Virus record (IMG/VR): IMGVR_UViG_2531839146_000012
Direction: 5' to 3' (one strand)
Origin: a virus
Lineage: Duplodnaviria > Heunggongvirae > Uroviricota > Caudoviricetes
Length of the DNA: 9,403 bases
Part shown: positions 1,856 to 9,403 of the stretch, piece by piece
Numbering within the stretch: position 1 is the first letter of the stretch
Layout: each line of letters starts with the position of its first letter
Program-made: the position numbers and the translations under genes
The notes under the pieces: model-generated
The model's database searches: none
Seen by the model: only the letters and a program-made list of their open reading frames with translations
Told to the model about the DNA's origin: nothing

Positions 1856-2275
1856 CCTTTATCCCTTCCCTTATGGCTAGATTGCGAGAAGTGCTTAACG
1901 CGATTTTCAGCGCCCCCCGATCTGGAAAATCCAGAATCCCCAAATATCAGCAAGGAATTTTCTTGCGTAATCAACATCGTTTTTACCTATTAAATCATCA
2001 CACAGAAAGCCTTTCTGTAATGTCTCTCACTAAACTTTCACTAAACACGAGAATGATCGGTTTTATGTCGGATCAGATGCTAGAAACAGCACCACGTCTC
2101 ACAAGGGCTGTAAGCGATGAAACCAGTGTTTATGCGGGTGCAGGTCAAAATATGGGCCAAAATCCATTTAACATAATAATCGTAATATGCACTAAGGAAC
2201 ACATAGAACGCCTTGAATTGATGTATCAGGGGAAAAGTGATGGATTTTTTACGTAGGAGCACGAGAGGGCTTCTG

Positions 2276-2303
2276 TTGACTTTTGTGTGCTATGAAATAT
2301 AAT
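2276..2303 (+). promoter_or_regulatory. Putative sigma70 promoter firing into the repeat region
   Basis: -35 TTGACT (2276-2281), 16-bp spacer, -10 TATAAT (2298-2303). No ORF follows. Confidence 0.4.
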
Positions 2304-2337
2304 TAAAGGTTTTTTGTTTTTATCGTGTGATGTAGTG

Positions 2338-2780
2338 GATTACACAGGGGGATAGATTAAATGGTGTTCTGTTTATACAGGTTTATTTGTTAGATCAACA
2401 ATTTGGCATTTCTAAACAGATGTTTGAACGTTGCCAAATGTATTGACAACACAAGAAAAGGGCTTGCTATGCCACGCATTACACGGAATAAGGCTGTAAA
2501 AACAAAATAAATTTTAAAATTTGCACAAACGAGAAAACTCGTTCAGAAACAAGCAGAACAATTTTTAGCCAACAATTTCTGATGGTGCTCTGTAAACCGC
2601 ATTACACAAGGCTTTGCGAAAGTGATGTAAAAGTGAAGAAAGCTAACATTGCACTTTGAAGCCATTTTTCATTGGATTTTTTAGTAGGGAATTACACAGG
2701 GAATAGAGAGCATTATTCTATGATTTACACAGGGAATATAGGGGATTATGGCACACACATAGAAAGGCATTACACAGAGT
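2338..2780 (+). repeat. Dispersed direct repeats of G(C/G)ATTACAC(A/G)GG (iteron-like), six copies
   Basis: ATTACAC cores at 2339, 2478, 2601, 2691, 2769 and a TTTACAC variant at 2724, each preceded by G(G/C/A) and followed by (A/G)(G/A)G. Confidence 0.6.
2401..2439. promoter_or_regulatory. Nested imperfect palindrome ATTTGGCA...AAACA-GA-TGTTT...TGCCAAAT, operator-like
   Basis: Outer arms 2401-2408 and 2432-2439 are exact reverse complements; an inner palindrome AAACAGATGTTT lies between them. A TTGACA at 2443-2448 follows. Confidence 0.35.
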
Positions 2781-2808
2781 GAGTGCTATGTGATGATTGG
2801 TAGTAACG

Positions 2809-2843
2809 GTAGGTCACTGTGAGCTACCCCCACAGAATTCTGT
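2809..2843. repeat. Isolated copy of the 22-bp repeat core (GGTAGGTCACTGTGAGCTA) followed by CCCCC and a perfect 12-bp palindrome ACAGAATTCTGT
   Basis: 2809-2827 matches the tandem unit at 3028-3135; the palindrome at 2832-2843 is flanked by TACCCC on both sides. Confidence 0.5.
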
Positions 2844-2883
2844 TACCCCTATCAAGTCTGATACCCGATAAGTATAAATAACA

Positions 2884-2981
2884 CCTAGGAAATGATTTCC
2901 GATCTATTTAGGAAGTAACCTAGGAAGTGGTTTCCTACCTACTTAGGAAATGAGTTCCTACCTACCTAGGAAATGAGTTCC
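2884..2981. repeat. Four CCTAGG-GGAAAT-G-A(T/G)TTCC palindromic sites, the last three at 23-bp pitch
   Basis: GGAAATGATTTCC at 2888-2900 is a perfect odd-length palindrome; GGAAGTGGTTTCC at 2923-2935; GGAAATGAGTTCC at 2946-2958 and 2969-2981. Confidence 0.6.
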
Positions 2982-3006
2982 ACCAATACTATAATTAAAT
3001 AATATA

Positions 3007-3022
3007 AATAATATTCTTTATA
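3007..3022. repeat. Exact 16-bp direct repeat AATAATATTCTTTATA, left copy; right copy at 3184-3199
   Basis: Identical 16-mers at 3007-3022 and 3184-3199 bracket the 22-bp tandem array and its AT-rich flank; both continue with similar (C)TATAT sequence. Confidence 0.55.
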
Positions 3023-3027
3023 CTATA

Positions 3028-3135
3028 TAGCTCACTGTGAACTAGGGGGGGTAGTTCACTATGAGCTAGGGGGTAGGTCATAGTGAGCTAGGGGGTAGGT
3101 CATAGTGAGCTAGGGGGTAGGTCACTGTGAACTAC
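3028..3135. repeat. Five tandem 22-bp repeats (unit about TAGGTCATAGTGAGCTAGGGGG), each with a palindromic TCAC-N-GTGA core
   Basis: Units start near 3028, 3050, 3074, 3096 and 3118 with 22-bp period; the first unit is in inverted orientation (AGCTCACTGTGAACTAG). Followed by an AT-rich stretch with (TA)6 at about 3203-3214. Confidence 0.65.
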
Positions 3136-3324
3136 AATAAGACTATTAATAAAACTATATTAGATTATTAATTAGATCATAATAATAATATTCTTTATAT
3201 CTATATATATATATGATCTTTTGCCTTCCGGCGTTAGCTTCACTCTCTGGCAAGCAGCCTTACTCCGCTACCTTTCGGGCTTCGTGGCTGGCCCGTTCCG
3301 CTCACACCGAAAGCAAAGCGTTAC

Positions 3325-3366
3325 TTTCTTCGTGTAACTATCGTGGCGGTAACGCCCACGAAGAAA
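3325..3366 (+). other. Stable hairpin with GNRA-type tetraloop (GGCG-GTAA-CGCC) nested in a 9-bp outer stem
   Basis: TTTCTTCGTG (3325-3334) pairs with CACGAAGAAA (3357-3366); inner GGCGGTAACGCC at 3345-3356. Sits in a locally GC-richer segment (about 3216-3420). Confidence 0.35.
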
Positions 3367-3600
3367 TACTATTGCGCTGTGCGCAGTAAGAGTAATCACC
3401 TAACCAATCATACTGATTGCTTATGTGTTAACTCTCTCTACTCTTAATTACCCTCCTACATATAATAACTCTGTTATTCTCTGTAGTTGTGTAATTACTC
3501 GAAGAGAGAGCGGCTAAAGCTCAATTACACTCTGCTTTCCTCGTGTAATTTCACTAAGCCTCAATACAATTCCACTTCCTACTTCTGTAGTCGTGTAATT
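3330..3600 (-). repeat. Inverted copies of the ATTACAC motif (CGTGTAAT) plus a 20-bp direct repeat CT(C/T)CTGTAGT(T/C)GTGTAATT
   Basis: GTGTAAT at 3489-3495, 3543-3549 and 3593-3599; GTGTAAC variant at 3333-3339; one direct ATTACAC at 3524-3530. The 20-mers at 3479-3498 and 3582-3600 are near-identical. Confidence 0.5.
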
Positions 3601-3640
3601 GTTTTCGGTGGAAAAGCCAGAGGCGACACCGAAAGAGAAT

Positions 3641-3710
3641 TCTGATCTTATTAATCTTATCTATCTTAGTTAATCTTCTTACTTATCTTACTTTATCTAC
3701 TTTATTATTA
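3641..3710. repeat. Pyrimidine-rich cluster of TTATCT / ATCTT motifs (AGATAA on the minus strand)
   Basis: TTATCT at 3657-3662, 3683-3688 and 3693-3698, plus several ATCT variants. Confidence 0.4.
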
Positions 3711-4220
3711 ATAATAGCTTTATAAGCTCTCTGACGCAAGAAACAGCATTCAGGAAGGGAATCACCTTAGAAAAGGTGTTCTTTGCGTCATAATGTGTTT
3801 TATGAGGGATTCAGAGGTGTTTCATAACAGGAATGTATAGAGGATACTTTAGGTAATTAAAAATAAGGGGTCTAAATGCTTCTCTAACAGCATTAAGCAG
3901 GGTAGGGAATGGAAACGCATTGCCTACACATATAGGCTCACTACAGAGCTTTACAGAGCGTTTTATAAAGTGACTCTCTATCTTATATCTACCATCACCT
4001 TTTCATATACCTAACAAATACAAAATAAGCCCCTTAAATAAGCCTCTGGCGAGCTAAACAGCCATTAGATAAGGGAATGTATTGCTTTTATCAAAATCTC
4101 GTTAGAACGCGTTTTAGAGCGTTTTAGACAATAATGAAGAATAGCACTACACAGAAGAGCACGAATAGCTAAGAAAAAATGTAAGTACATGAAAAAGATC
4201 AGATTTTTTGTGAAAAGGTA

Positions 4221-4249
4221 TTGACAAATGTTTCTTTATATGTAATAAT
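4221..4249 (+). promoter_or_regulatory. Putative sigma70 promoter of the early operon
   Basis: -35 TTGACA (4221-4226), 17-bp spacer, extended -10 TGtAATAAT (4241-4249). It lies about 110 nt upstream of the first gene. Confidence 0.5.
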
Positions 4250-4359
4250 AGGTATTAGAGGGACAGAAAAACATTCTTCTCTAAATAATCAAAATCAATG
4301 CACTTTGAAGCCGTCAGGCTTGCAAGGTGTTTTTCTTTTAACTGAATAAGGAGTTTTTT

Positions 4360-4548
4360 ATGAAATGGTTTACCCCGGAGCACGTCATCTCGGCATTTAA
4401 AAAAGGTGAGCTTACACGCCATCAAGTAGTAATGAATCGTAATATGGCAAGGAGTCGAGGTTATCCAGAGCGAGCAGCTTGCTTCAATGAAGCACTCAAG
4501 ATTATTGATGAATTAAGAAAAAATGAAAAAGAATCTGAAACAGAGTAA
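4360..4548 (+). CDS. Small hypothetical protein (62 aa), first gene of the early operon
   Basis: AAGGAG RBS at 4348-4353, 6-nt spacer, ATG 4360. No family recognised. Confidence 0.6.
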   Translation: MKWFTPEHVISAFKKGELTRHQVVMNRNMARSRGYPERAACFNEALKIIDELRKNEKESETE

Positions 4549-4567
4549 AGAATAGAAGGAGAAAACT

Positions 4568-4735
4568 ATGAGCGAAACCAAGAAACCAATTCCGCGCACT
4601 TACCTACACGTTGACCCTGAAATCTTCAAGGTTTTATTTGCTGAAGCCAAGAAAAGGCAAATTATGGTCAGTGATTTGATGTTAGAAATCATTACTGAAG
4701 CAGCAGAGAACATCAAACAAAAAAAGGGTAAGTGA
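4568..4735 (+). CDS. Ribbon-helix-helix (CopG/Arc/MetJ-like) DNA-binding protein, 55 aa; below the ORF-track cutoff
   Basis: AAGGAG at 4555-4560, ATG 4568, stop TGA 4733-4735. Translation MSETKKPIPRTYLHVDPEIFKVLFAEAKKRQIMVSDLMLEIITEAAENIKQKKGK fits a beta-strand / helix / helix layout typical of RHH proteins. Confidence 0.55.
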   Translation: MSETKKPIPRTYLHVDPEIFKVLFAEAKKRQIMVSDLMLEIITEAAENIKQKKGK

Positions 4736-4786
4736 TCCTCATTCACTTTAGTAGCGCATTAAGCGTGATTTATAAGGAGATTTTTA

Positions 4787-5479
4787 ATGATTAATCAACT
4801 AACTTTTACAAAACACTATGACACGTTTGATAATGTATCAAAGATTTATTCTGATAAATTCCCTCAAGGAAAAGATTTAGATCTATTACATATTGTGCTT
4901 TATTTTCGATTCCTTAGTTATCAGGAAAACAACCTTAATTGTTATGAAAGTCACGAAACATTAGCTAAGATTTTTAAGTCTTCAGCGTCAACAATTAAAC
5001 GTAAGATAAACGATCTTAAAGAGATGGGATTATTAGAAACATCCCCACATCCTGATCCGTATATTTCATCTTTGATTTACAATGCTCTCCCTCTCACAGA
5101 TGCACATATTACTCCCCCAGGAGAATCATCACTCTCTGATCTTTCTGAGGCAGAAGAAGCACAGGAACAACCTAAAGGCCATAAACAGCCTTCTTTTGAT
5201 GTTCTTGATGATGATTGGGATGCGCCTTTACCGTGGGAGACGGAAGAAACACCTGTTTCATCAAGTGAAAAGGTAGCTAATGATAATGAGGAGGATGTGT
5301 TAGAGAATTTTGCCTCTCTTATCATCCGGGAGAAACACAGAAGAACAGGAGGATCATCATTTATAGACTTTGCAAATTCACTGGCTTATAGACACGGGCT
5401 AAAACGACCAAATGGTATTGAGGCATATTTTGCTAAGAAACATCCCAAAGTATATGAAGACTTTGATATTCCATTTTAA
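4787..5479 (+). CDS. Winged-HTH protein (HTH_36 / replisome-organizer-like N-domain), acidic linker, C-terminus ending EDFDIPF
   Basis: AAGGAG at 4774-4779, ATG 4787. The N-terminal ...CYESHETLAKIFKSSASTIKRKINDLKEMGLLE matches the usual winged-HTH pattern of phage/plasmid replication organizers. An acidic low-complexity linker (DDDWDAPLPWETEE...) follows; the last residues are YEDFDIPF, stop 5477-5479. Confidence 0.8.
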   Translation: MINQLTFTKHYDTFDNVSKIYSDKFPQGKDLDLLHIVLYFRFLSYQENNLNCYESHETLAKIFKSSASTIKRKINDLKEMGLLETSPHPDPYISSLIYNALPLTDAHITPPGESSLSDLSEAEEAQEQPKGHKQPSFDVLDDDWDAPLPWETEETPVSSSEKVANDNEEDVLENFASLIIREKHRRTGGSSFIDFANSLAYRHGLKRPNGIEAYFAKKHPKVYEDFDIPF

Positions 5480-5490
5480 TAAGGAGGGTT

Positions 5491-5769
5491 ATGATTCAAT
5501 ATTTAGTAAAAAATCAAGTAGACAGAATTCAGTGTAATGACACAGGAAAACGCATCTATGAAACACTTGCTTACCTCTATAAAGGAAAGCCAACACCGCT
5601 AAAATATAGCGATGTGTTACATCGAGCAGGGTGCTCTGAAGATGGTTTAAAATTCTGGCTGAAACAGCTATCAAATTTCGGTGTTATTGAGATTAAAGAA
5701 TTATCTTTCTCTACATTCAATCTCAAAAGACTAAATAGAGAAATAGACTTCATCTATTCCACTCTCTAA
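5491..5769 (+). CDS. Small hypothetical protein (92 aa), possible winged-HTH
   Basis: AAGGAGGG RBS at 5481-5488, ATG 5491; tightly packed after the previous gene. Confidence 0.7.
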   Translation: MIQYLVKNQVDRIQCNDTGKRIYETLAYLYKGKPTPLKYSDVLHRAGCSEDGLKFWLKQLSNFGVIEIKELSFSTFNLKRLNREIDFIYSTL

Positions 5770-5898
5770 AATCTCTCTATGTAATTAAAATATAAAAGGA
5801 AAACATTATTATGATAGTAGCTATGTATTGGTTATTGTTCTTTCTCACGTTAGAAACATATTTCGGGGTGTTTTCCTTTAAAAGAAAAGGAAAAGTAA

Positions 5899-6309
5899 AT
5901 GGCAAAAAGAAAAAACAACGTTGTTAAGAAGATCGGTGATTCAGCTTCTCTTCTAAGTAAACCTAAATCTATTCTAAGACGTAAAGACTTTAAAGAGCTA
6001 GTTACGCTCTCCAAGCAAAATAGCGCCCCTGGCGAATGGAAAACAGAGATCATAGAACATTCTCCCTCTGTGCCTTGTGGAGATGAATTTAACGCCTTAC
6101 AAGAAATCTTATCTTCAACACCTGGCGTATTCTGGAAACCTAGAAAAAGAAAAGAGTATATTGTTGATAGCTCTGATTTACGCAAATACCAGATTTTAGG
6201 ATTTGAAGACTACAACCACTACGTCGGTTATCTCGCCACAAATGGCCTAAATAATTTAGTTCCTGAATTCCAAATTTTAGATAATGCAGATCACTATGGA
6301 GACTTTTAA
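5899..6309 (+). CDS. Hypothetical protein (136 aa) with Lys/Arg-rich N-terminus, ending ...HYGDF
   Basis: Purine-rich RBS (AAAGGAAAAG) before ATG 5899. N-terminus MAKRKNNVVKKIGDSASLLSKPKSILRRKDFKEL. Confidence 0.65.
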   Translation: MAKRKNNVVKKIGDSASLLSKPKSILRRKDFKELVTLSKQNSAPGEWKTEIIEHSPSVPCGDEFNALQEILSSTPGVFWKPRKRKEYIVDSSDLRKYQILGFEDYNHYVGYLATNGLNNLVPEFQILDNADHYGDF

Positions 6310-6310
6310 T

Positions 6311-6649
6311 ATGAACAAAAACACGTATGACACAATTTACTCACTAATTAATTATTATGAGGATGATTACCTCCTGCCTTTAAACCGCGCTGAACTTGAA
6401 GCATACAAAGAAAACACGCCAGCGGCACTAAATGAGGCGTTTAAACACTGGGATTTAGCTGTGAATGCCTTTGAGCACCTCTCTAAGCGTGTAGAGATGC
6501 TCTGTAAGCGTGAGAACGCATATCTAACAGCGGATCAGCTATTTGAGCTATCAAACTGGATAGAAGGTATTGAATCGGACGTTCGCTATGTGGGAGATGG
6601 CCTTGTCGAACTAGCTCAACGCTTAGGCGCTACTATCACAGAAGAATAA
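6311..6649 (+). CDS. Acidic hypothetical protein (112 aa)
   Basis: GGAG at 6298-6301 then ATG 6311. The track start at 6284 would overlap the upstream gene and lacks an RBS. About 21 Asp/Glu versus 10 Lys/Arg by count. Confidence 0.7.
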   Translation: MNKNTYDTIYSLINYYEDDYLLPLNRAELEAYKENTPAALNEAFKHWDLAVNAFEHLSKRVEMLCKRENAYLTADQLFELSNWIEGIESDVRYVGDGLVELAQRLGATITEE

Positions 6650-6678
6650 AAAAAGCAACAAAAAAGTTGTAAAATATC

Positions 6679-6707
6679 TTGACATTTCATATATTGTATG
6701 TTAATAT
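6679..6707 (+). promoter_or_regulatory. Strong sigma70-like promoter ahead of the late genes
   Basis: -35 TTGACA (6679-6684), 17-bp spacer, -10 TAATAT (6702-6707). Confidence 0.6.
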
Positions 6708-6714
6708 AATTATA

Positions 6715-6932
6715 TAGGGTGATTATTTTTCCTTTATTGGTTCGATATTAAAAATTCTTCTTGTCGTTAAAGGGGAGTAAAATCTCCGCTCCCCGCTTCT
6801 CCTCCTTAAGTAATACTGTGTCATTATTACCTCTTTCCTTTGTTATGCATACATCTTGGAGTGTGCATAACATAGGGTAATTACATAGGTACAAGTTAAT
6901 AAAAGGCGGCTTTAAATGCTGCCTTTTATTTT
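6715..6932 (+). ncRNA. Candidate roughly 220-nt leader / small RNA from the promoter to the intrinsic terminator; no ORF
   Basis: Promoter at 6679-6707 and terminator at 6901-6932 with no ORF over 11 codons between them. Alternative hairpins GGGGAG...CTCC...CTCCCC (6772-6794) and a 9-bp stem TGTTATGCA / TGCATAACA (6841-6849 / 6865-6873). Confidence 0.35.
6901..6932 (+). terminator. Rho-independent terminator
   Basis: Stem AAGGCGGC (6903-6910) / GCTGCCTT (6918-6925, one G-U pair), loop TTTAAAT, then TTATTTT. Confidence 0.6.
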
Positions 6933-6994
6933 GCCCGTTATGCAACTTAAAAGTTGTATTTCTTACTTTAAACAAGGTAACAAGGTTTATATAA

Positions 6995-7207
6995 ATGTTG
7001 TTCTTAAATGATAAAGAGCAAATCATCAAGTATCGCGATGAAATGCTAAAGATCAATCCACAAATTACCGAAATGGTAGCTAAATACGCTGGGTGTTCTG
7101 TCGAGGAAGTAGAAAGATGTGTTGAAAAATATTTTTCTCCTTCTTCTCCGTCTACACCTTCCCTTAATGAATTAATCAAATTAAAAGCTAAGGAGATTAC
7201 TAAATGA
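6995..7207 (+). CDS. Small hypothetical protein (70 aa), first late gene
   Basis: ATG 6995 with a weak AAGG RBS; its stop overlaps the next start (ATGA at 7204-7207), suggesting translational coupling. Confidence 0.5.
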   Translation: MLFLNDKEQIIKYRDEMLKINPQITEMVAKYAGCSVEEVERCVEKYFSPSSPSTPSLNELIKLKAKEITK

Positions 7208-7566
7208 TTATTGATTTAGACACTCTGTTTCCAGTTCGAAAGACTTTCACAGATATTGTAAGTTATTGTACTGATCCGTTTGCCTCTGTAGAAAGCAAGG
7301 TTTTTGCTTCTCTTCCTGCTGATGTTGAGTGCGGAGACTTGATCACCAGCACTGGCGCTAAATATGAATCAGGAGATGATATCTATGTTGTTATGAGTGA
7401 ATTTGTAACGGCTGGAGCAAACAAGCCTGTAGATGTGCTACGTAGCAATGCTGGGCTTGTATGCATCAAAGCTGATGCCCTGAATGCTGTAAGTGAAGCA
7501 GCAAAAGCAGCATTAATTAAAAAAGGCTTTCAGCTTGAAGGGTTCCATTCTGTTTTCACTTCTTAA
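7204..7566 (+). CDS. Hypothetical protein (120 aa) immediately upstream of the capsid homolog; possible head accessory (decoration or scaffold-like), unproven
   Basis: AAGGAG at 7191-7196, ATG 7204. The accessory-protein role is suggested by position only. Confidence 0.7.
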   Translation: MIIDLDTLFPVRKTFTDIVSYCTDPFASVESKVFASLPADVECGDLITSTGAKYESGDDIYVVMSEFVTAGANKPVDVLRSNAGLVCIKADALNAVSEAAKAALIKKGFQLEGFHSVFTS

Positions 7567-7584
7567 TAAAAGGAATAATAATAA

Positions 7585-8613
7585 ATGATTCTAGGTAATG
7601 ATTACGTTGATTTAGCTCCTCTGTTCTCTGCGCATAGCACTAGAAATTATCTGCTTTCTACTCTTGATTTTACGGATTCTGTAGGGGTTACATCTCATAA
7701 AGTGGCTGTTAGCCAACTGGTGGAAACTAACGAATCTCTGTTCAACAAAGAAACCTCTCGTTTCTCTTCTGAACATAACGTGACTAAGCGTGAACAAGGT
7801 AAAGAATATCTGATTGAAATCCCGTACTTTTTAAGGGAAGACCTGATCAAACCGCAGGACGTGCAAGGCAAACGTAAACCTGGCACTGATTTTCAGGAAA
7901 CACTCACTGATATTTATGCTGACTATGTTGCTAAACACAATGTTGCATTCCAGCGTACAAAAGAGAGCGTGTTGGCGGCTTCTTTGTTCTCTGGCAAAAC
8001 TTACACGCCTAAAACTGATGATGTTCTTATCGAATGGGGCAAGCTGTTTAACGTATCAGCTATGAAAGCCACTGTGAACGCTTCCAGCACTGACACCACG
8101 AAGATTTTTAAAGAATTTGATCAGATTGCTACTGACATTATCGAGAAAGCACAAAGCCAGGCGGCTGCTGTAGAGCGTATTGTTGTTTTCTGTAAGCCGG
8201 AAGCCTTCTCTGCAATTCGATTCTCTGCTGGTATGGCAAACGCATTCCAGTATGTAAGCCCACTGGAAGAGGGGAACGTTGTGTATCAGCGTCGTGACCT
8301 GCTGCCAGGGGTGACAGCGTTCACTATTCCAGGAACTAACATTGATGTTATTAAACTGGTAGATCCGCTACACCTGGCACATATGACCGCAGACGCTGTA
8401 GCGATTCCGAAGTTTGCTAAAGGCTCTAACGTATATCAGAACATCTACGGGGCTGCTTCCAGCACTTTTGAACTGATTAATGCCGATCCTACTGAGGTCT
8501 ATAGCTACAGCTATGAATCTTCTCGTGGTGATGCTGTGAACGTTGTTACAGAGAATAGCCAGATGGTTGTTAACCACGGTGTAGGCTTCTCCGTTCAAAT
8601 CACTGTTAAATAA
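7585..8613 (+). CDS. Putative phage major capsid protein, T7 gp10-like (342 aa)
   Basis: AAAAGGA RBS, ATG 7585. By eye, the segment AVERIVVFCKPEAFSAIRFSAGMANAFQYVSPLEEGNV aligns with T7 gp10 ...ADRVFYCDPDSYSAILAALMPNAANYAALIDPEKGSI (shared R, C-x-P, SAI, M-x-NA-x-x-Y, P-x-E-x-G) at a similar position in a protein of near-identical length (342 vs 345 aa; T7 sequence from memory). Followed by a strong terminator. Confidence 0.6.
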   Translation: MILGNDYVDLAPLFSAHSTRNYLLSTLDFTDSVGVTSHKVAVSQLVETNESLFNKETSRFSSEHNVTKREQGKEYLIEIPYFLREDLIKPQDVQGKRKPGTDFQETLTDIYADYVAKHNVAFQRTKESVLAASLFSGKTYTPKTDDVLIEWGKLFNVSAMKATVNASSTDTTKIFKEFDQIATDIIEKAQSQAAAVERIVVFCKPEAFSAIRFSAGMANAFQYVSPLEEGNVVYQRRDLLPGVTAFTIPGTNIDVIKLVDPLHLAHMTADAVAIPKFAKGSNVYQNIYGAASSTFELINADPTEVYSYSYESSRGDAVNVVTENSQMVVNHGVGFSVQITVK

Positions 8614-8630
8614 TATTTAACGTGTAATAG

Positions 8631-8664
8631 AGGCGTGGCGTGTATTCACGCTTCGCCTTTTTTT
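8631..8664 (+). terminator. Rho-independent terminator after the capsid-like gene
   Basis: AGGCG-TG-GCGTG / loop TATT / CACGC-TT-CGCCT, followed by a 7-T run (8658-8664). Confidence 0.7.
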
Positions 8665-8698
8665 ATTTATTTTTTAAATTTTGAGAGGTGATTAAAAT

Positions 8699-8902
8699 AT
8701 GGAAGTGATTCTGAAATCAAAAAATGGTGTACACGTACATTTAGATGCTAATGATTCTAGAGGATTGTTAAATCTGAAATATCTATGTTCTCTCCTAGAT
8801 GTTCCATATGAAGGAGTAAAAGCCCGTATGTTCAGACTAAACGAGAGTATTGATCAAGCTCTACACCATTTCTTAAGCAAAGAAGGTGATAAAAATGATT
8901 AA
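8699..8902 (+). CDS. Small hypothetical protein (67 aa)
   Basis: AGAGG RBS, ATG 8699, stop 8900-8902. Confidence 0.5.
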   Translation: MEVILKSKNGVHVHLDANDSRGLLNLKYLCSLLDVPYEGVKARMFRLNESIDQALHHFLSKEGDKND

Positions 8903-8916
8903 TAAGGGGATTTTAA

Positions 8917-9183
8917 ATGTTAGAAATTAACACTTCTAAAATTAAGAACACAGTTACATTTAGTGTAGATAAAGACAGCTTGAAAAAAGCGAAAGACTCT
9001 ATTACAGGCTTAAAGGAATTCGCAGAAAACATCAAGCCAGCTAAATTAAGGTTTGATAATGTCACTAAAGGCTATAAGAAAGCACAAAGTGAAGTAGATA
9101 AGATTACTAAAAAGCAAGCCCAGGCTGATAAAGCTAATGCTAAAGCACAATTAGCCGCTCAACGTGTAGTTGCAAGAGGGTAA
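8917..9183 (+). pseudogene. Lys/Ala/Gln-rich (coiled-coil-like) protein gene truncated by the IS1 insertion
   Basis: AAGGGGA RBS, ATG 8917. The frame runs into the IS1 terminal inverted repeat starting at 9179, and the stop TAA (9181-9183) is supplied by the IS1 end GGTAATGAC. Translation ends ...AQLAAQRVVARG. Confidence 0.5.
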
Positions 9184-9403
9184 TGACTCCAACTTATTGA
9201 TAGTGTTTTATGTTCAGATAATGCCCGATGACTTTGTCATGCAGCTCCACCGATTTTGAGAACGACAGCGACTTCCGTCCCAGCCGTGCCAGGTGCTGCC
9301 TCAGATTCAGGTTATGCCGCTCAATTCGCTGCGTATATCGCTTGCTGATTACGTGCAGCTTTCCCTTCAGGCGGGATTCATACAGCGGCCAGCCATCCGT
9401 CAT
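9179..9403 (-). mobile_element. IS1 right end (partial; continues beyond the window)
   Basis: 9179 onward reads GGTAATGACTCCAACTTATTGATAGTGTTTTATGTTCAG..., the reverse complement of the canonical IS1 right terminus including the GGTAATGACTCCAACTTATTGAT inverted repeat. Confidence 0.9.
9194..9403 (-). CDS. insB: IS1 transposase InsB, C-terminal fragment
   Basis: Track [72 protein letters not shown] is the recognisable C-terminus of IS1 InsB; stop at 9196-9194. Confidence 0.9.

Follow-up and report, generated by a model that had tools for sequence, protein, structure and literature searches.

The 9,403-nucleotide stretch of virus record IMGVR_UViG_2531839146_000012 (IMG/VR; Caudoviricetes), called the window here and analyzed over its whole length, contains a gene-free gap directly ahead of a capsid operon. 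An original prediction, made from the sequence of the window, placed in this gap a strong promoter, an untranslated leader and an intrinsic terminator, bracketed by two palindromic sites, and compared the arrangement with the pR'-tR' late control of lambdoid phages or with a stand-alone small RNA (sRNA). The gap was analyzed in the window and in related loci. Given that its layout is shared by related islands of at least eight other genera, we conclude that this cassette very probably switches capsid production on and off.

The cassette ahead of the capsid operon

All genes of the window lie on the + strand. The early region (4221-6649) runs from two small genes, one of them ribbon-helix-helix-like, through a gene resembling HTH_36 proteins and replication initiators to three small genes and then to the gap, after which follow a 70-amino-acid gene, a 120-amino-acid gene and a Phage_cap_E major capsid gene (Table 1). 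Small proteins encoded by the island comprise one of 62 amino acids, a ribbon-helix-helix-like one of 55, a winged-helix-like one of 92, those of 136 and 112 and a helix-turn-helix-like one of 67 encoded past the capsid gene. The downstream genes had been called late genes; they do include structural genes, and the capsid operon that they form belongs to a satellite-like island and not to a complete phage.

Table 1. Features of the window and their positions (position 1 is the first nucleotide of the window).
Feature	Position	Strand	Description
Early promoter	4221-4249		strong; TTGACA-17-TGtAATAAT; 11/12 plus TG; followed by TAGAGGG
Gene upstream of P_L	6311-6649	+	112 amino acids, from M10 of a 121-codon open reading frame; acidic
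Operator-like palindrome O1	6655-6670	.	GCAACAAAAAAGTTGT; GCAAC-N6-GTTGT; centre at about -51.5 from the predicted start
Sigma-70 promoter P_L	6679-6707	+	-35 TTGACA 6679-6684; 17-bp spacer; -10 TAATAT 6702-6707
Predicted untranslated leader/short terminated RNA	6714-6932	+	~219 nt; predicted start near 6714
TAGGGT motif	6715-6720	+	about +2 to +7; -10-like (A2 and T6 present); 7 nt after the -10
Hairpin HP1	6772-6794	+	GGGGAGU/GCUCCCC; -12.2 kcal/mol; 2/200 shuffles fold as well
Pyrimidine-rich tract with CUCC repeats	6783-6808	+	includes CCUCCUUA at 6801-6808
Long hairpin HP2	6816-6888	+	-27.6 kcal/mol, z = -4.3; core arms 6837-6852 and 6861-6876
Intrinsic terminator	6898-6932	+	arms 6898-6910 and 6918-6930; 13-bp stem; 7-nt loop; A-tract upstream
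Operator-like palindrome O2	6942-6957	.	GCAACTTAAAAGTTGT; GCAAC-N6-GTTGT; centre at about +236; 38 bp before the ATG
Controlled operon	6995-8613	+	70-amino-acid gene 6995-7207; 120-amino-acid gene 7204-7566; Phage_cap_E capsid gene 7585-8613
Second intrinsic terminator, strong	8630-8665		directly after the capsid gene; closes the operon

The strong promoter first proposed for the gap (TTGACA-17-TAATAT) was read directly from the window. It scored 10/12 plus TG in a consensus scan and has an extended -10 element, TGn at 6699-6701, that was absent from the earlier list of features. Only 29 bp separate the early operon from this promoter, P_L, and no terminator lies between them.

The leader had been described as a region of roughly 220 nt without an open reading frame (ORF). 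It comes to ~219 nt and holds no credible ORF, the sole one on the + strand being a 39-codon ORF that starts with TTG and has no Shine-Dalgarno sequence. On the minus strand, an arginine-rich ORF of 33 codons (6723-6824) runs antisense to the leader behind a good Shine-Dalgarno sequence (GAGG, 5 nt, ATG); as a gene it was rejected, its frame being broken by a 1-nt indel in most E. coli relatives.

Folded as a whole, the leader has a minimum free energy (MFE) of -65.2 kcal/mol, with z = -5.7 on the + strand vs z = -3.9 on the - strand. The alternative hairpins noted earlier are present, and the 9-bp inverted repeat within the leader, TGTTATGCA (6841-6849) and TGCATAACA (6864-6872), proved to be the core of HP2. 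Among the E. coli variants, HP2 differs by a single substitution in its central loop and, in the outer stem at about 6825-6836, by a few changes and short indels; none of these reads as compensatory. The terminator, expected about 60 bp before the first gene, was calculated at -17.8 kcal/mol (z = -6.6) and has the U-tract TTTTATTTT at 6924-6932, where it ends 62 nt ahead of the ATG at 6995. A pattern scan did not pick up this terminator; the probable reason is that part of the T-run is taken up by the A/U pairs that extend the stem.

In a cmscan of the whole window against Rfam release 15 (E <= 1), no riboswitch, leader or sRNA family was matched on the leader, and the only match in the window was a spurious one to the L20 leader at the terminator after the capsid gene. 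ARAGORN found nothing relevant in the window. A BLAST search of the gap against 50,697 phage records yielded nothing beyond short chance matches, and a known phage is therefore not the source of the cassette. The window leader also has a significant C-over-G cluster (p = 0.0035). A Rho-utilization site as a feature of the family was rejected, since this cluster is not significant in most relatives.

Conservation of the layout and the operator pair

Relatives were found through homologues of the capsid protein, and the comparison set comprised 119 loci from Escherichia, Citrobacter, Enterobacter, Cronobacter, Klebsiella, Dryocola, Serratia, Sodalis and metagenomes, at least nine genera in all, with capsid proteins 38-98% identical to that of the window. 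In every locus a gene of 66-75 amino acids is preceded by a gap free of genes, ranging from 345 bp, the length found in the window (6650-6994), to ~1000 bp. In nearly all loci, a TTGACA-17/18-(TGn)TAnnnT promoter stands 20-30 bp past the stop codon of the upstream gene. The ORF-free leaders vary from 220 to ~1000 nt between island types; most leader types have an intrinsic terminator within the last 60-110 bp ahead of the first gene, and many of the longer ones contain two or more terminator-like hairpins. TAGGG(T) or a close variant, located 5-8 nt past the -10, is kept across this family of related loci. The leader sequences themselves are not alignable between island types and a global alignment is not meaningful; RNAalifold on an alignment of 895 columns gained little.

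Nucleotide diversity was compared over 35 distinct E. coli-type loci. It was 0.019 for O1 with the promoter, 0.017 for the leader, 0.015 for the terminator and 0.007 for the segment between the terminator and the ATG, which includes O2, while the flanking genes gave 0.05-0.17 at third codon positions and 0.014-0.037 at first plus second positions. For E. coli this puts the variability of the gap 3-10 times below that of the third codon positions beside it, which means that the gap is constrained at least as much as protein-coding sequence. The 34 distinct E. coli leaders differ mainly by indels in CT repeats and by a 17-bp deletion. Judged from these comparisons, the arrangement of promoter, leader, terminator and palindromes is shared between genera and subject to purifying selection.

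Covariation was found in the Citrobacter/Enterobacter-type leaders, where a hairpin of ~85 nt is preceded by UUCUUCUUUGUCGUUCCGAAGG and followed by AUCUCC. Compensatory changes occur in 11 of its 18 pairs, 95.8% of the cells are paired (79% in shuffles) and 44 cells are compensatory (15 in shuffles); the signal collapses when the partners are slid by 1-3 columns. The counterpart in the window has the order UUCUUCUUGUCGUU, the shorter GC hairpin HP1 and CUUCUCCUCC, the hairpin of the relatives being larger, GC-rich, preceded by UUCUUCUUGUCGUU and followed by CUCC. HP1 may be said to resemble the covarying hairpin, which is not established homology. In Citrobacter-type leaders, furthermore, the GGG of TAGGG pairs with a downstream CCC, with some compensatory change.

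The two near-identical 16-bp palindromes that had been reported to flank the cassette are the only matches to GCAAC-N6-GTTGT in the window, with 0.37 expected and at least two found in 13 of 200 shuffles. On the statistics of the window alone the pair would be only suggestive; the comparative data are decisive. The more general site yAAC-N6-GTTr, whose background density is 0.2 per kb, stands at the promoter in 14 of 22 representatives, and 12 of these 14 have a further copy 631-673 bp before the capsid start, between the terminator and the first gene. At the promoter the site keeps one of two exact registers. It lies either 23-24 bp before the start of the -35 element, as in the window, or 9-12 bp after it, inside the spacer and overlapping the extended -10, a position that would be like that of a repressor site.

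The half-sites of O1 had no substitution in 34 E. coli-type sequences, and the 6-bp spacer was changed in one and shortened by 1 nt in one. When 22 Citrobacter/Enterobacter-type leaders were aligned, the TAAC and GTT columns were invariant and the six bases between them varied freely, being A/T-rich in either orientation (GCTTTC, AGAAAA, AAATAA and ACTTCC; also GGAAAT). Read as RNA, O1 and O2 give weak hairpins of -4.3 and -6.5 kcal/mol. Since the half-sites are invariant, the spacer is free and occurs in either orientation and the RNA hairpins are weak, the comparison points to O1 and O2 as putative DNA operators for a dimeric protein, not as an RNA element or a recombination site. A role as boxB-like RNA hairpins is disfavored by the same weakness and by loops that are free and orientation-independent, and recombination sites were rejected, as the two copies have different 6-bp spacers in almost every lineage.

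The phage operators of the 434/P22 type have the form ACAA-N6-TTGT. O1 and O2 are like them in being short inverted repeats with half-site centres ~10 bp apart around an A/T-rich, uncontacted spacer, present in two copies per promoter region. They differ in the sequence of the half-sites, in that no repressor gene was identified, and in that the second site is 287 bp away, past the terminator. The presence or absence of island protein families does not track that of yAAC-N6-GTTr, so the binding protein is not assignable in this way.

Related palindromes were seen at other places. A perfect 12-bp palindrome, AACAACGTTGTT, lies at 5914-5925, at the start of the gene for a 136-amino-acid protein, and consists of the O1/O2 half-sites without a spacer. 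In Citrobacter-type relatives, a third TAAC-N6-GTTA site was found ~160 bp before the homologue of this gene. A Klebsiella-type locus (L007; 4845-4895 and 4975-4992 in its own coordinates) has two AGGAAT-N-TTCCTA palindromes upstream of its promoter, which resemble the RcsAB box, and GTTAC-N6-GTAAC at about +8 to +23 of its leader.

Proposed control of capsid production and its alternatives

We propose, with a probability of about 0.5, that the capsid operon is controlled by default termination, factor-dependent read-through and the operator pair. RNA polymerase starting at P_L would by default stop at the leader terminator and yield the short RNA with little or no capsid mRNA, and the same terminator would stop transcription arriving from the early operon, which lacks a terminator. 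Transcription of the capsid genes would take place only once polymerase has become termination-resistant. The likeliest route to this state would be processive, factor-dependent antitermination set up at or near the promoter in the fashion of lambdoid pR'-tR'; such a process is favored by a terminator placed behind a promoter so strong that it should need no activator, and by early transcription that would run into the same stop. The terminator that closes the operon and the one in the leader mean that the structural region is split by at least two terminators, and the multiple terminators of long leaders together with the one after the capsid gene fit processive antitermination better than an attenuator with a single terminator. 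The read-through factor might be supplied by a helper phage, a helper-encoded Q included, or be a protein of the island; candidate helpers are resident lambdoid or P22-like prophages and the Justusliebigvirus phages muut and inny. A dimeric protein recognizing yAAC-N6-GTTr would bind O1 at the promoter and O2 after the terminator, and would either repress P_L, maybe by looping over the 287 bp, or mark the cassette for the read-through factor.

The likeness to lambdoid pR'-tR' put forward in the original prediction stands for the layout, the geometry and the conservation. In lambda (read from NC_001416), Q stops 44 bp before TTGACT-17-TAAATT, compared with 29 bp from gene to promoter in the window; AACGAT-GGG lies 6 nt past TAAATT and TAGGGT 7 nt past TAATAT, both being -10-like with G's; and tR' ends ~194 nt from the start, giving 6S RNA, compared with a short RNA of ~219 nt here, in both cases at an intrinsic terminator. 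Both systems have a constitutive-looking sigma-70 promoter with structural genes downstream. At sequence level the window has the promoter and the terminator that would give a short RNA, as in lambdoid control. The Q-binding element of lambda lies between -35 and -10, and many relatives have their operator-like site in this position, whereas that of the window is upstream of the -35. In contrast to lambda, the cassette belongs to an island of 12-13 kb with an E-type capsid gene and a Dit-like gene and without a Q homologue. The control would then be a variant of the pR'-tR' type in an undescribed island family, and lambdoid membership is not claimed.

Several results weigh against the proposed scheme, and some of them also limit the likeness to lambda. 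No Q, N or other antiterminator was recognized among the 10 proteins of the window with Pfam, PHROGs or PADLOC. TAGGG(T) likewise stands after the early-promoter -10 in most island types examined (L017 and L010 lack it, and the window has TAGAGGG there), so the motif is not specific to late control; it may be a feature of the start site or of a 5' stem and not a pause signal. Unlike in lambda, a second identical operator stands after the terminator, and O2 has no role in the classical Q mechanism. The gene upstream of P_L, syntenic in 6 of the 9 island types compared, was considered as a source of a Q-like protein and rejected: the 112-amino-acid product is modeled as a generic acidic three-helix bundle with a predicted local distance difference test (pLDDT) score of 75 and has no informative fold match, and neither it nor the 121-codon version matched anything in Pfam, PHROGs or PADLOC, the PDB sequences giving one marginal match to GldM (E = 0.014) and nothing related to antitermination. 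For the 136-amino-acid protein, which is conserved in all island types, the AlphaFold model was too poor for a fold search (pLDDT 52.6). The yAAC-N6-GTTr pair is missing from Klebsiella, Serratia, Dryocola and one divergent E. coli lineage, which have other palindromes instead. Covariation was not assessable in the window's own hairpins, the E. coli variants being near-identical, so that their support is thermodynamic; a covariance model of the Citrobacter/Enterobacter-type hairpin (R1) scored a non-significant 7.6 bits (E = 1.3) on 6726-6790 of the window, at the expected place, and it does not detect the leader types of Klebsiella, Serratia, Dryocola and Sodalis. Finally, the start site, the efficiency of termination and read-through are inferred from the DNA sequence.

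RNA-based antitermination is known from lambda N/nut and from put of HK022. Read as RNA, O1 and O2 would be 5-bp hairpins with A-rich loops that are loosely boxB-like, and leaders with several terminators call for a processive mechanism. Membership in the N/nut class was rejected, as O1 lies upstream of the start of P_L, the loop is free, the hairpins are weak and no boxA or N-like protein was identified.

Among the other explanations, a stand-alone sRNA, already named in the original prediction, comes closest, and we regard it as rather unlikely. P_L would be constitutive in the resident island and the ~219-nt RNA itself the product, serving immunity or acting as a riboregulator directed at host or helper in the manner of StxS or of the CI RNA of P4, with the CUCC-rich, anti-Shine-Dalgarno-like tract as its seed. 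A strong promoter and a strong terminator that ends in a U-tail and follows an A-rich stretch are in line with this, the U-tail and the A-rich stretch being generic features of the Hfq-sRNA type, and the RNA is highly structured in prediction and strongly conserved in sequence over its whole length. CUCC is enriched on the + strand in all leader types (4-15 per kb vs 2-4 per kb for the loci as such), only the window's own leader type shows no depletion of GGAG, and CCUCCUUA is identical to the 3' end of 16S ribosomal RNA (rRNA). A precedent is StxS, an sRNA that arises by early termination of the pR' transcript in Stx phages; there the short RNA is the default product of a terminated late promoter, and such a by-product can be a regulator (PMC7547250). 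The window leader differs from StxS in having no sequence or Rfam relationship to it and no complementary target in the window, the longest complementarity to the rest of the window being 11 nt vs 10-12 nt in shuffles. Moreover, leader length and sequence change almost completely between types, an uncommon pattern for an sRNA that acts in trans through a conserved seed, and the position directly before a promoterless operon speaks for a role as leader. One role does not preclude the other, and the short RNA of the proposed read-through scheme may be a regulator in its own right.

A more far-reaching version of the scheme, which we hold to be doubtful, is that the satellite senses its helper: an abundant, structured leader RNA, ~220 nt long in E. 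coli and up to 1 kb with covarying domains in relatives, and the operator pair would recruit a factor that is neither Q nor N and makes polymerase terminator-resistant, the terminated RNA possibly doubling as an immunity or anti-helper sRNA. This would amount to an RNA- or DNA-based switch of a kind not recognized before and to a new system of processive antitermination. In the immunity of satellite P4, the constitutive promoter P_LE is followed by a long leader from which the CI RNA is cut, and this RNA directs premature termination; the system controls the replication operon and needs the complementary repeats seqA, seqB and seqC. The window is similar in being a satellite-type element with a strong promoter and a long leader in which transcription would stop by default. 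It differs in that capsid genes are controlled here and that no seqA/seqB/seqC-like repeats above chance occur in the window. An immunity RNA of the P4 CI/P1 C4 type was rejected, as Rfam release 15, which we believe to include the related C4 antisense RNA family, gave no match (E <= 1) and no complementarity above chance was seen.

It is decidedly unlikely that repression accounts for the control by itself, with the operator protein acting on P_L and the terminator mainly ending the early operon, being leaky or bypassed, so that no dedicated antiterminator is needed. The overlap of the promoter site with the extended -10 in many relatives agrees with this, as do the missing antiterminator homologue and the lack of a terminator between the early operon and P_L; the symmetry of A-tract and U-tract would also make the leader terminator potentially bidirectional. 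However, this terminator stands downstream of P_L and hence blocks P_L transcripts too, it is strong, with a 9-nt U-rich tail, and relatives often have more than one copy of it. Repression would not call for leaders of 220-1000 nt that contain conserved structured elements, and O1 of the window is upstream of the -35 and does not cover the core promoter.

A leader that works in cis as an attenuator or in the manner of a riboswitch, its alternative pairings responding to a ligand, a protein or translation, is very improbable. The candidates are the direct repeats AUAGGGUrAUUA and UUUCCUUUrUU, which can swap pairing partners, and CCGCUU at 6793-6798, which in the MFE fold pairs with 6904-6909 as long as the 3' arm of the terminator has not been made, the 5' arm being 48% unpaired at this stage. 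This alternative pairing amounts to about 6 bp and is far weaker than the terminator; there is no leader peptide and no Rfam riboswitch or leader match, nothing comparable is kept between leader types, and multiple terminators do not suit a single switch. That the region is decayed coding sequence or spacer DNA with chance motifs and no dedicated function is hardly credible: the palindrome pair is marginal in the window alone and promoter-like sites as a class are not enriched there in the consensus scan, but the layout is conserved across genera with the low diversity described above, the structure z-scores are strongly negative and relatives show covariation.

The timing and mode of capsid production are the key to the role of the island as a satellite, a decoy or a transfer agent, and the cassette is its most conserved non-coding part and the obvious control point. 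The analysis offers a testable switch made of promoter, RNA, terminator and two operators, together with natural variants and, in relatives, an RNA element supported by covariation. If the read-through factor is neither Q-like nor N-like, it would stand for a new antitermination mechanism; if the short RNA regulates, it would be a widespread sRNA of mobile elements that is absent from Rfam.

The island carrying the cassette

The ends of the window are insertion sequences, IS100 (1-215, the istB end of an IS21-family element) and IS1 (9178-9403), of which IS1 truncates a gene of ~612 amino acids starting at 8917. The window is not a phage genome; it is part of a satellite-like integrative island of ~12-13 kb that has been cut by IS100 and IS1. 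The sequence between the insertion sequences has 92-96% identity to a chromosomal island in 754 of 5426 complete E. coli genomes, 306 of which have the leader type of the window; the island is almost never on plasmids. It was also found in Klebsiella, Enterobacter, Citrobacter, Cronobacter, Serratia and Sodalis. The leader lies at 327515-327863 in E. coli O26:H11 11368 (NC_013361), and strain NT1N31 is another carrier; a leader 100% identical is present among these. A limited literature search found no published description of this island family, and nearly all island genes carry the annotation hypothetical.

In strain E423 the island is ~13 kb long, has a tyrosine integrase at one end and adjoins yagP-paoD, a site that is occupied in K-12 by the cryptic prophage CP4-6. 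The E423 island (L001) is bounded by a repeat of ~59 bp, at 8377-8435 and at ~21603, that matches the CP4-6/yagP junction of K-12. CP4-6 as a relative of the island was rejected: the integration site is common to both and the rest is unrelated. In several loci (L004, L011, L013, L015 and others), a second, short gene with a Phage_integrase domain (186-204 amino acids) lies at ~20-800 in locus coordinates, opposite the full-length integrase.

The capsid protein is of the lambda E type, with only ~25% identity to its closest relatives among isolated phages. Judged from relatives, a protein of ~620 amino acids and a Dit-like tail protein follow farther downstream. Portal, terminase and lysis genes were not recognized by Pfam in the part of the island examined, where several genes have no family match. 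Between the second terminator and the truncated gene lies a 67-amino-acid gene (8699-8902), whose Citrobacter homologue (L004) has weak helix-turn-helix-like Pfam matches (E ~0.04-0.05).

Upstream of the early genes, 2262-4360 is a stretch of 2.1 kb in which no ORF is credible and for which RefSeq has no annotation either; in relatives, an equivalent region of ~1.8 kb is free of genes. It contains five 22-bp iterons GGGGGTAGGTCATAGTGAGCTA (3026-3135), flanked by AT-rich blocks at 2992-3022 and 3169-3214, as well as three ACCTAGGAAATGATTTCCTACCTA-like copies (2883-2972) and six copies of ATTACACAGGG (2330-2780). This stretch is probably the replication origin and regulatory region of the island. 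Pieces of the early promoter and its leader are duplicated within it, at 2436-2449 and 2647-2663.

In the early region, 239 bp (4556-4794) covering a ribbon-helix-helix-like gene of 55 amino acids show 100% identity to muut and inny, virulent Justusliebigvirus phages of 146 kb. This identity indicates recent exchange with a large lytic phage, which could be a helper or an antagonist of the island.

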